Shown here piece by piece: positions 5,759-8,672 of a DNA stretch of 49,438 bases. Location: IMG/VR virus record IMGVR_UViG_2861048470_000005, one strand, 5' to 3'. This stretch comes from a virus (Duplodnaviria > Heunggongvirae > Uroviricota > Caudoviricetes). Both the position numbers and the translations under genes were made by a program. The notes below the pieces were generated by a model, which saw only the letters and a program-made list of their open reading frames with translations, searched no databases and was not told where the DNA came from. Every line of letters begins with the position of its first letter. Position 1 is the first letter of the stretch.

Positions 5759-6178
5759 TTAAGAGGCTTTTTGTTTTTTCTTTCGTGCTAACTCTTCGTA
5801 AATTGCATTGTACTTCTGTTTTTTCTCTTCAAGAGTTTTTAAAAGTTCATCTGTCTCACTGTCAGGGAGCTCGTCCAGAAGGTCAATGATGATTTTTTGT
5901 CTTGGATTTAACTCCTGATAGAAACGTACCTGTCCACTTTCTTCTGTATCCTCTCCCAAAAGATAGGTTGGTGTTGTTCCTATTAGTGTTGCTAATTCCC
6001 TTAATTTCTCCCGGCGAGGAATTGTTTCGCCATTAAACCATTTGCTAACCGCTTTTGGTGTTAATTTCATTCGACGGGCAATTTCTGCCTGCCTTCCATG
6101 TTGTTCATAACCAGCGTTTTCACAGGCTAGCGCAAGCCTACTGGCGAACTCTTTACGCGCTTTATCTTCATGAACCAT
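5759..6178 (-). CDS. XRE-family helix-turn-helix prophage repressor (RacR/CI-like)
   Basis: 139-aa ORF with an N-terminal HTH (...QAEIARRMKLTPKAVSKWFNGETIPR...), divergently oriented to a Cro-like gene and flanked on both sides by GTAC-cored repeats. Confidence 0.8.
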   Translation of the reverse strand: MVHEDKARKEFASRLALACENAGYEQHGRQAEIARRMKLTPKAVSKWFNGETIPRREKLRELATLIGTTPTYLLGEDTEESGQVRFYQELNPRQKIIIDLLDELPDSETDELLKTLEEKKQKYNAIYEELARKKKQKAS

Positions 6179-6202
6179 AAGTTCAATGATATTCGCTCTT
6201 GA

Positions 6203-6233
6203 ATGTACTGTCAGTTCTGTTATAGCATGTACT
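6203..6233. promoter_or_regulatory. Candidate right operator/divergent promoter region (OR-like)
   Basis: The 79-bp intergenic region between the divergent repressor and Cro-like genes contains ATGTACT twice (6203-6209 and 6227-6233). Confidence 0.35.
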
Positions 6234-6257
6234 CAAAGTTCACATTGTGAGGGTGAT

Positions 6258-6512
6258 ATGAACCAGAAAACACTTGAAGATGTAATCAAAACTGTTCGCG
6301 TTGCTGTTGTGGCCGACGTTTGTGGTGTCAGCCAAAGAGCAATCTATAAATGGATGGATAACGGAAAATTGCCTCGCACAGAATATACCGGCGAAACAAA
6401 TTACGCTGAAAAAATCGCTCTTGCATCAAACGGATTATTTTCTGCCGATGCAATTTTAACTATTGGCAGGAATAAAACTACTACGAAAAAGCTGATGGGA
6501 GTTGATTCATGA
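6258..6512 (+). CDS. Cro-like / YdaS-family HTH regulator
   Basis: Start chosen at internal Met (MNQKTLEDVIKTV...) preceded by GAGGGTGA. Small HTH protein (VCGVSQRAIYKWMDNGKLP) divergent from the repressor, as in the Rac racR-ydaS-ydaT arrangement. Confidence 0.65.
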   Translation: MNQKTLEDVIKTVRVAVVADVCGVSQRAIYKWMDNGKLPRTEYTGETNYAEKIALASNGLFSADAILTIGRNKTTTKKLMGVDS

Positions 6513-6934
6513 AAATCAAGCATGAACACATCCGCATGGCGATGAATGCCTGGGCGCATCCGGACGGCGAAAAAGTACCGGCTGCGAAAATTACCAAAGC
6601 GTATTTCGAGCTGGGAATGACGTTCCCGGAACTGTATGACGACAGCCATCCGGAAGCCCTGGCCCGTAATACCCAGAAAATTTTCCGTTGGCTGGATAAA
6701 GACACCCCTGATGCTGTTGAAAAAATGCAGGCTCTGTTACCGGCGATCGAAAAGGCGATGCCGCCTTTGCTGGTGGCCCGTATGCGCAGCCACAGTTCTG
6801 AATATTACCGTGAGATCGTCGAACGGAGGGATCGGCTGGTGAAGGATGTCGATGATTTTGTTGCGTCAGCGGTTGTTTTGTATGACCAGATGAATCGCGG
6901 CGGCCCGGCAGGGAATGCTGTGGTGATGCACTAA
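6509..6934 (+). CDS. YdaT-family protein (CII-position regulator, sometimes called a toxin)
   Basis: 141-aa ORF overlapping the upstream stop by ATGA. Size and position match Rac YdaT; family assignment is from recall. Confidence 0.6.
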   Translation: MKIKHEHIRMAMNAWAHPDGEKVPAAKITKAYFELGMTFPELYDDSHPEALARNTQKIFRWLDKDTPDAVEKMQALLPAIEKAMPPLLVARMRSHSSEYYREIVERRDRLVKDVDDFVASAVVLYDQMNRGGPAGNAVVMH

Positions 6935-6941
6935 AAGCACG

Positions 6942-7919
6942 GTGTTCGGGGGTTTTATGAGCAGCAAGCTTCATGGTCTTGTCTGGGAAGGGTGCGCCTT
7001 CACCGGCATGATCTTATCCAGGGTGGCGGTTATGGCCCGTCTTGCAGACTACAGCAATGACGAGGGCGTGTCATGGCCTGCCATTGAAACTATCCGGCGT
7101 CAGATCGGTGCAAGAAGTGAATCCACAGTGAAATCGGCTATTGCAGAACTGGCGAAAGAGGGCTGGCTGACGAAGGAAGAGCGTAAGGTCGGTGGGCGTA
7201 ATGTAAGCAATATCTATCGGCTTAATGTGGAAAAACTCGAAGCAGCTGCGGCGGCGGCGCGTGAGTCATATAAACCGAAAAGAAAAATTAGCCCGGCAAA
7301 AAATGACCCGTTAACAGTTGACCCGTCAAATATTGACCCCTCAACGGTTGACCCGTCAAATTTTGATGGATCAACCGTTGATAAAAAACTGCCGATTAGG
7401 GGGGCGATGATTGACCCCGATCCGTCAGTATTAAAACCTGATCCGTCAGATAAAAGATCTTCTTGTCCGGACGCTTCGCAACCGGACCCGCAGACGGCTG
7501 AACAGGATTTTTTAACCCGACACCCTGACGCGGTTGTGTTCAGTGCGATAAAACGCCAGTGGGGAAGTCAGGAAGATTTGGTGTGCGCACAGTGGATCTG
7601 GGGACGAATCGTGAGTCTTTACGAGCAGGCGGCCAGCTATGATGGCGAGATCACTAGACCGAAAGAACCCAACTGGACAGCATGGGCCAATGACGTTCGC
7701 ACAATGCGGATGCTGGATGGCAGAACTCACAGACAAATTTGTGAAATGTTTGGGCGTCTCCAGCGGGATTCGTTCTGGGTAAAAAACATCATGAGTCCGG
7801 CAAAACTCCGGGAAAAATGGGATGAACTGGTTATCCGCCTGGGGCGTTTGCCTGCGCAGCGTTGCGTGAATCACATTTCTGAACCGGACACTGAAATACC
7901 GCCGGGATTCAGGGGGTGA
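6942..7919 (+). CDS. Replication initiator protein (lambda O-like / YdaU-like)
   Basis: 325-aa ORF with an N-terminal winged-helix region, followed by a DnaC-like gene. Tandem DNA iterons lie inside the linker region (encoding ...TVDPSNIDPSTVDPSNFDGSTVD...), as ori-lambda lies within O. Confidence 0.7.
   Translation: MFGGFMSSKLHGLVWEGCAFTGMILSRVAVMARLADYSNDEGVSWPAIETIRRQIGARSESTVKSAIAELAKEGWLTKEERKVGGRNVSNIYRLNVEKLEAAAAAARESYKPKRKISPAKNDPLTVDPSNIDPSTVDPSNFDGSTVDKKLPIRGAMIDPDPSVLKPDPSDKRSSCPDASQPDPQTAEQDFLTRHPDAVVFSAIKRQWGSQEDLVCAQWIWGRIVSLYEQAASYDGEITRPKEPNWTAWANDVRTMRMLDGRTHRQICEMFGRLQRDSFWVKNIMSPAKLREKWDELVIRLGRLPAQRCVNHISEPDTEIPPGFRG
7303..7392. repeat. Tandem ~15-bp iterons (candidate phage replication origin) inside the initiator gene
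   Basis: Five to six tandem 15-bp units with core TTGACCCGTCAA (aTGACCCGTTAACAG, TTGACCCGTCAAATA, TTGACCCCTCAACGG, TTGACCCGTCAAATT, TTGATGGATCAACCG, TTGATAAAAAACTGC), each with internal dyad symmetry TTGA...TCAA, followed by an A-rich stretch. Confidence 0.55.
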
Positions 7920-7925
7920 CGTGTC

Positions 7926-8672
7926 ATGAAAAACATTGCGGCAGGCGGCGTTCTTGAACGTATCCGAAGACTGGCTCCGCCACATGTAACCGCCCCATTC
8001 AGAACGGTAGCGAAGTGGCACGAGTGGCAACTTGCTGAAGGCCAGAAACGTAGCGAGGAGATCAACCGCCTGAATCGCCAGTTGCGGGTGGAAAAAATTC
8101 TGAATCGCTCAGGCATCCAGCCGTTGCACCGTAAATGCTCGTTTGCGAATTACCAGGTGCAGAACGACGGTCAGCGATACGCGTTGAGCCAGGCGAAATC
8201 TATCGCTGATGAACTGATGACCGGATGCACAAATTTCGCGTTTAGCGGAAAACCTGGTACCGGGAAGAACCACTTAGCAGCAGCTATCGGGAATCGCCTG
8301 CTGAAAGACGGTCAGACAGTGATTGTGGTTACCGTGGCTGATGTTATGAGTGCCCTCCCCGCCAGCTATGACGATGGGCAGTCAGGCGAAAAATTTTTGC
8401 GGGAACTGTGCGAAGTGGATCTGCTGGTTCTTGATGAAATTGGCATTCAGCGCGAGACGAAAAACGAGCAGGTGGTACTGCACCAGATTGTTGATCGCCG
8501 GACAGCGTCGATGCGCAGCGTGGGGATGCTGACAAACCTGAACTATGAGGCCATGAAAACATTGCTCGGCGAGCGGATTATGGATCGCATGACCATGAAC
8601 GGCGGGCTATGGGTGAATTTTAACTGGGAGAGCTGGCGTCCGAATGTCGTCCAGCCAGGAATTGCGAAGTAA
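7926..8672 (+). CDS. DnaC-like replicative helicase loader (IstB-like AAA+ ATPase)
   Basis: 248-aa ORF with Walker [11 protein letters not shown] and Walker B LLVLDEIG, immediately downstream of the initiator gene. Confidence 0.85.

Follow-up and report, generated by a model that had tools for sequence, protein, structure and literature searches.

A predicted replication origin within the repeat-encoded linker of the O-like initiator gene of a lambdoid (Rac/Eru-type) prophage

Bacillus phage SPP1 carries oriL inside gene 38, i.e., within the gene of its own initiator, and in iteron-type theta plasmids the winged-helix initiators RepA, RepE, and pi read tandem iterons of ~19 to 22 bp beside a melting region. 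Phage lambda has four iterons, annotated in the lambda record at nt 349 to 433 of the initiator gene O, and Shiga toxin (Stx) phages have six (PMC7466680). The stretch analyzed here, referred to throughout as the window, is the whole 49,438-bp sequence of a Caudoviricetes virus (IMG/VR record IMGVR_UViG_2861048470_000005), in which a sequence-only reading had proposed a candidate origin of tandem iterons inside an O-like replication initiator gene. We predict that positions ~7288 to 7488, inside the linker of the initiator gene itself, form the replication origin of a lambdoid (Rac/Eru-type) prophage. We consider this probable because the repeats are real, are selected as DNA, lie at the position of the lambda iterons in an O-homologous gene, and change with the type of N-terminal domain.

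A search of both strands of the window with TTGACCCGTCAA, allowing up to 2 mismatches, returned four + strand matches (7303, 7318, 7333, and 7348) and one - strand match (7363). The chance expectation was 4.45 scattered matches, whereas the observed sites all fall within 72 nt at an exact 15-bp spacing; no further match was found outside the array in the 49,438 bp. Tandem Repeats Finder placed an array with a 15-bp (also 30-bp) period at 7283 to 7381. Seven units are visible in the 15-bp register from 7288 to 7389, five of them good 12-bp palindromes and two degenerate (Table 1), in agreement with the five to six tandem ~15-bp repeats originally proposed. The internal palindromy and the encoded VDPS linker described in the sequence-only reading were likewise borne out: each unit consists of a TTGA arm, a 4-bp G/C spacer, and a TCAA arm (TTGA-SSSS-TCAA), and the units are in frame, encoding (V/I)-D-P-S-(N/T). 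A 41-bp near-perfect palindrome arises because the orientation switches between units 4 and 5. Folded as single-stranded DNA, positions 7290 to 7400 reached -19.6 kcal/mol (z = -4.35), a stability equaled by 0 of 200 shuffles. In clade-A relatives, the half-site equivalent to the isolated one at 7411 to 7418 is paired with an upstream GGGGTCAA.

Relatives of the N-terminal domain were collected from 80 loci in ~70 species of Enterobacterales, 76 of them long enough for analysis. Linkers were repetitive with a 15-bp period in all 76 homologues, and at least one strict TGA-N4-TCA unit was present in 75 (mode, 3 to 5). This motif was counted 290 times in 21.7 kb of linker and 170 times in the 488 kb of DNA around it, which makes it 38-fold enriched in the linker; 289 of the 290 linker sites share one reading frame, and their dominant spacing is 15 bp. 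TCA makes up 51% of Ser codons in the linker versus 16% elsewhere in the same genes. Normalized synonymous-codon entropy averaged 0.23 over 35 conserved linker columns, compared with 0.83 in the winged-helix domain (70 columns) and 0.75 at the start of the C-terminal domain (Mann-Whitney P = 1e-14, to be taken as indicative only, since the codon statistics count related sequences as independent). Examples of frozen linker codons are TCA (66/66), AAA (49/49), GAT (76/76), and GTA (67/69). Synonymous sites are saturated in the neighboring domains, and recent transfer therefore cannot explain the frozen codons of the linker. The 4-bp spacer determines a residue that is free to vary (P, A, T, G, R, V, E, or H), whereas the arm-encoded residues are fixed. 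Some units have also been flipped: in copies from Erwinia, Morganella, and Edwardsiella (loci L004, L007, L009, and L011), TTGACCCCTCAA (encoding DPS) is turned into TTGAGGGGTCAA (EGS), and the flipped unit 5 of the window encodes DGS, so that flips keep the DNA site and alter the peptide radically. Judged by these sequence comparisons, selection maintains the repeats as DNA and not as peptide. The data set thus offers a clean natural example of an array of DNA-binding sites dictating the sequence of a protein linker.

The array occupies nt 332 to 433 of the 963-nt initiator gene and separates the two domains of the 320-residue protein, close to the 349 to 433 of the iterons in lambda O and consistent with the ori-lambda-like arrangement that had been proposed. 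An in-frame GTG at 6942 is an alternative start that would add 5 residues, and RefSeq copies begin MSSKL. The protein matched PHROG 391 ("replication initiation O-like") with an E value of 1.9e-113 (residues 1 to 320 versus profile positions 1 to 298 of 298). By BLASTP, residues 153 to 293 aligned with residues 145 to 270 of lambda O (36% identity over 141 residues; E value, 1e-25), and in both proteins the alignment starts directly after the repeat region. The N-terminal parts of the two proteins gave no BLASTP alignment. The description of the gene as an O-like initiator is accurate, its C-terminal domain being homologous to that of lambda O, while the N-terminal domain belongs to another family: its ~100 residues match Pfam HTH_36 (AlphaFold model predicted local distance difference test score, 76), the initiator's only other Pfam match being a weak one to DnaD_N. 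A fold search with the N-terminal domain found generic winged-helix matches and no specific initiator family.

The last ~24 residues of the initiator resemble the C-terminal tail of DnaT, a primosomal protein of the host. The tail is near-identical to that of DnaT and was recovered in a PDB sequence search (chains 2ru8, 6aep, and 9zbt; E values, 0.002 to 0.005) and by NCBIfam NF002770 (profile positions 160 to 179 of 179); the match is confined to this tail, and no full-length homology to DnaT was found. Rac YdaU and the O protein of phage mEp460 end in the same way, whereas lambda O lacks the tail, and it is because of this DnaT-like tail that relatives of the initiator are annotated as "primosomal protein I." Neither the preprimosome literature nor a motif search yielded a binding partner for it.

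The repeats differ in type among initiators with different N-terminal domains. Within HTH_36, proteins with an A(K/R)S(K/E)xTV start of the recognition helix and an RKxGGR wing (the window and loci L004 to L011 and L068) are accompanied by TTGA-SSSS-TCAA units. Those with A-GxSTVRT and an RRxGNRN wing are accompanied by (T)CTGA-N4-TCA(A/G)A units, and two intermediates (L012 and L048) have mixed units; the clade-B unit is TCTGACGCATCAAAA. Repeat subtype tracks the recognition helix and wing subtype, as coevolution of iterons and initiator predicts. The O protein of mEp460 shares the window initiator's C-terminal domain from residue ~175 on, with an unrelated N-terminal domain that has no Pfam match. 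At the domain junction, mEp460_ev081 carries five repeats with a 23- to 24-bp period and the core CATCGGGTCAAAATG (L085, 2332 to 2461); these repeats and their N-terminal domain are probably another uncharacterized iteron/initiator pair. The corresponding junction of Rac YdaU, which has a DUF1376 N-terminal domain and the same C-terminal tail, bears ATGTTCAAACA repeats. In ydaU of the K-12 Rac prophage (L003, 4472 to 4588), there are four direct or inverted copies where the DUF1376 domain meets the shared C-terminal region; we regard these copies as candidates for the iterons of the Rac origin.

A second conserved element follows the array. A GATC-bearing element with the consensus GGGGATCCGTCAGTAAATTCAAAACAAGATCCATCAGATAAAAAA was present in 73 of the 76 homologues, and in 72 of these 73 its first Asp codon is GAT and not GAC, so that GATC is preserved. 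We define the 15-bp-period TGA-N4-TCA units together with a GATCC(G/A)TCA pair in the linker as a trait of this HTH_36 O-like family, and the window has both. Codon entropy is ~0 for its GAT, TCA, GTA, and AAA codons, and codon-level conservation runs on to ~7488, through the GTCCGGAC palindrome. Four GATC sites within 7369 to 7459 (91 nt, including the site in unit 5) make up the densest GATC cluster of the window; two of the four are conserved over ~70 species by the choice of GAT over GAC. This conservation suggests an involvement of Dam/SeqA. Residues 145 to 158 of lambda O, which are encoded by the AT-rich tract of ori-lambda, align with residues 153 to 166 of the window initiator, i.e., with DNA at ~7413 to 7466, and the A+T content of 7419 to 7465 is 66%. 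The A-rich stretch pointed out earlier after the repeats does exist, but the A-run (GATAAAAAAC, 7380 to 7389) is the tail of the last degenerate unit, and from the sequence, 7419 to 7465 is a better candidate for the unwinding region than the A-run at 7382 to 7392. Likeness of 7419 to 7465 to oriC 13-mers, DnaA boxes, or IHF sites was judged by eye only, without a scan, and was dropped as unconvincing.

Table 1. Positions of the repeat units, adjacent conserved elements, and genes discussed in the text
Feature	Position	Strand	Details
cI-like repressor	5759-6178	-	Divergent
Replication initiator gene	6957-7919	+	320 residues from ATG at 6957; O-like, two domains, repeat-encoded linker
N-terminal winged-helix DNA-binding domain, coding part	6957-7260	+	Residues ~1-101; presumed iteron reader
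Unit 0, degenerate	7288-7299		TTAGCCCGGCAA, 3 mismatches, in 15-bp register; direct-repeat family reaches back to 7283
Unit 1	7303-7314		ATGACCCGTTAA, 2 mismatches
Unit 2	7318-7329		TTGACCCGTCAA, consensus
Unit 3	7333-7344		TTGACCCCTCAA
Unit 4	7348-7359		TTGACCCGTCAA, consensus
Unit 5	7363-7374		TTGATGGATCAA, inverted orientation, - strand match; peptide DGS, not DPS; GATC at 7369
Unit 6	7378-7389		TTGATAAAAAAC, left half-site only; runs into A-run
41-bp near-perfect palindrome	7341-7381		Inverted repeat, 20-nt arms, 90% complementary; potential hairpin/cruciform
Isolated left half-site plus spacer	7411-7418		TTGACCCC; abuts GATC element
C-terminal domain, lambda-O-homologous	7413-7835	+	BLASTP to lambda O
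Conserved GATC-bearing, moderately A/T-rich element	7419-7465		GATCCGTCAG at 7419 and, 21 bp on, at 7440; then AGATCT at 7455; candidate melting or control part of the origin
Palindrome GTCCGGAC and second CCGGAC	7465-7472; 7482-7487		Codons TGT 57/57, GAC 63/64
C-terminal tail GRLPAQRCVNHISEPDTEIPPGFRG	7842-7916	+	Matches C-terminal tail of host primosomal protein DnaT
DnaC-like helicase loader gene	7926-8672	+	Pfam IstB_IS21, 3.7e-19; NCBIfam PRK12377, 1.3e-150, and DnaC, 1.7e-91; directly downstream of initiator

One alternative is that the repeats are nothing but a flexible, low-complexity DPS linker of the protein, the regularity of the DNA being a by-product of recent slippage or duplication. 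The in-frame units would indeed give a Pro/Ser/Asp-rich and probably disordered linker, and unit number varies from 3 to 6 among close relatives, as slippage would produce. However, synonymous sites hardly vary in the linker over ~70 species, whereas those of the domains on either side are saturated; Ser is almost always encoded by TCA; and the central residue changes radically while the DNA arms stay fixed. The flips, which turn DPS into EGS or DGS and preserve the DNA site, point the same way. The synonymous-site and flip data together contradict a need for the repeats as protein linker alone, which the sequence-only reading had named as the outcome that would count against iterons, and make this explanation extremely improbable. 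Another possibility is that the conserved DNA is read by a host factor, either a nucleoid protein or, at the GATC sites, SeqA/Dam, or that the region is a recombination joint at which N- and C-terminal modules are exchanged. The former would fit the conservation of GATC (72 of 73 homologues) and the crowding of GATC sites, denser here than anywhere else in the window; the latter would fit phage matches to the initiator gene that start exactly at 7419 or 7452, indicating module boundaries there. Either could cover 7419 to 7465 but not the 15-bp array, which changes with the N-terminal domain subtype and is wholly replaced when that domain is replaced. Taken as a substitute for an origin, such roles are very unlikely, and they fit in with the origin model and do not compete with it.

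It is somewhat easier to imagine, although still unlikely, that the initiator binds the repeats for autoregulation, copy number control (handcuffing), or as a transcription roadblock, with the origin elsewhere in the prophage. Iterons of plasmids and of Vibrio cholerae chromosome II are reported to serve in control in addition to acting in origins, and the A/T-rich element next to the array is weak. In contrast, the array is placed as in ori-lambda, and the gene that holds it has a C-terminal domain homologous to that of lambda O; the same junction bears repeats in every N-domain class examined; and there is no second motif cluster in the 49-kb window. Several points also weigh directly against an origin at ~7288 to 7488. 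The best 40 nt near the array reach 66 to 68% A+T versus 80% in ori-lambda, and other parts of the initiator gene are equally AT rich. Half-sites only 7 to 8 bp apart from center to center are unusually tight for a symmetric winged-helix dimer, and the covariation of domain and repeat subtypes represents only one or two independent evolutionary events. The nonindependence of the sequences behind the codon statistics belongs here as well, and we found no published experiment tying the repeats of this family to initiator binding or replication. No strongly AT-rich tract was found near the array (no 40-nt stretch exceeded 68% A+T), and the unwinding element would be weaker than that of lambda or different in kind. 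Nevertheless, the iteron/origin interpretation is supported in that the computational tests able to contradict it all favored it.

Initiator binding, unwinding, helicase loading, and origin activity are steps that we only infer, and they can be arranged as follows. The N-terminal winged helix would bind the array of 12-bp sites (~5 good and 2 weak), giving an O-some-like nucleoprotein complex. This complex may destabilize the adjacent GATC-bearing DNA at 7419 to 7465, possibly under the influence of Dam/SeqA. The lambda-O-like C-terminal domain and the DnaT-like tail would then bring in host DnaB via the phage DnaC-like loader, and in relatives that lack the loader gene (e.g., L001), host DnaC would load DnaB instead. 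Transcription from the early-right promoter passes through the array and GATC region. A more far-reaching version, which we regard as speculative and rather doubtful, is a ~200-bp bipartite origin unlike ori-lambda, in which a continuous initiator filament, melting in a Dam/SeqA-controlled GATC element, and direct recruitment of host machinery (DnaB-DnaC or PriA/PriB partners) by the DnaT-like tail are combined. Filament assembly, in place of discrete dimers, would be possible because the half-sites alternate in orientation every 7 to 8 bp. If true, direct recruitment by the tail would account for the many copies that can do without the phage DnaC-like gene.

The initiator comes fourth in a typical early-right operon. 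The genes run from a divergent cI-like repressor through a cro/YdaS-like HTH gene and a YdaT-family gene to the initiator and a DnaC/IstB-like ATPase, followed by DUF1627 and DUF977 genes. A promoter and terminator scan of 6100 to 8000 found none inside the initiator gene. The YdaT-family gene (PF06254, annotated as "toxin"; 6509 to 6934) lies immediately upstream of the initiator, in the cII position, which is the layout of Eru8 and Eru11. The DnaC-like loader is an optional part of the module. In Escherichia coli FDAARGOS_401, an essentially identical initiator (the same protein as in the window) has no DnaC-like neighbor and is followed directly by a DUF977 gene (L001, 8978 to 9019). Phages mEp460 and 720R4 and Klebsiella phage 1 LV-2017 also have no loader beside the O-like gene. 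In L001, a similar prophage of another E. coli strain, a RelE/RelB toxin-antitoxin pair lies beside the repressor (6202 to 6683), and the window has no such pair there. In the early-left region of the window, a 21- to 22-bp tandem repeat (TTGTTCCGCTTTCTGGCTCGTT) is present at 2280 to 2355 in 3.6 copies with 72% matches.

The N-terminal half of the initiator together with the repeats was found in 1,520 of 5,426 complete E. coli genomes, at 99% identity or more in 1,366 of these, and the genomes with the module include O157:H7 and O103 strains. Searches for the exact motif, for lambdoid iterons with DnaC, in replication-module reviews, and for HTH_36/PF13730 found no published description of the iterons or origin of this HTH_36 O-like family. 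The classical lambdoid arrangement and the annotated "O-like" family are already known, and the prediction itself would not surprise a specialist; what is new is a well-supported prediction of the origin of a very common prophage module. The module belongs to the "non-lambdoid" Eru-type replication regions of Stx phages, and the candidate origin is a target for the study of prophage replication after induction, which sets toxin gene dosage. It also bears on the replicon incompatibility of co-resident prophages and on lambda-dv-like vectors. A 16-kb circular E. coli "plasmid" (NZ_CP148542.1; L087; 15,977 bp) was considered as evidence of autonomous replication and rejected. It consists of a prophage segment only, from cI to the lysis genes and including the replication module, and no replicon type is given. 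Frameshifts at homopolymers in its YdaT-like and initiator genes point to a low-quality long-read assembly, and the record could be either a lambda-dv-like replicon or an assembly artifact.

The order of genes is that of the ydaU-ydaV module of the K-12 Rac prophage, the origin of which is oriJ: both have a repressor, a cro-like gene, YdaT, the initiator, and a DnaC-like protein (YdaV in Rac), and they also share the IPPGFRG tail and repeats at the domain junction. Unlike the window initiator, YdaU has a DUF1376 N-terminal domain, and its ATGTTCAAACA-type repeats are irregularly spaced. The comparison with ydaU that had been suggested would thus show a different N-terminal domain and not a close relative. 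The same initiator family is found in the HTH_36 Eru regions (Eru5, 6, 8, 11, and 13; PMC8951638) and in SfII, SfIV, and phiP27. By tblastn, identity to the SfII, SfIV, phiP27, and Eru relatives is 44 to 52% over the N-terminal domain and linker, and relatives of this type carry TCTGA-N4-TCAAA units. Eru8 and Eru11 have a YdaT-like gene beside cI, and the study that describes them, which mentions neither iterons nor an origin, states that there is no knowledge of how these phages replicate (PMC8951638). Among 50,697 deposited phage genomes, the TTGA-SSSS-TCAA subtype of the window had no match above 60% protein identity. Unlike plasmid iterons, the window array has a shorter period (15 bp), its units are palindromic, and its half-sites alternate every 7 to 8 bp.

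A close parallel in organization is ori-lambda, and so are the origins of Stx phages 933W and P27, which have six iterons: the repeats lie between the two initiator domains, in tandem, and each is palindromic. The window shares with ori-lambda the position in the gene, the homologous C-terminal domain, a conserved A-rich element after the repeats, and a number of repeats that differs from one relative to another. However, the N-terminal domain is HTH_36 in the window and Phage_rep_O in lambda (PF04492, 5.7e-36 for lambda O), and the window initiator has no PF04492 match. Lambda iterons are 18- to 19-bp imperfect inverted repeats (ATCCCTCAAAACGAGGGA) with a 20- to 24-bp period; the units of the window are instead 12-bp TTGACCCGTCAA sites with a 15-bp period, in line with the claim that the iteron sequence is distinct. 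The lambda tract has 80% A+T over 40 nt, whereas the flanking element of the window has 66% and conserved GATC sites. Finally, the window initiator has a DnaT-like tail that lambda O lacks, and the partner of lambda O is P, whereas that of the window initiator is DnaC-like (or, in some copies, absent), the downstream gene of the window being DnaC/IstB-like rather than of the P type.

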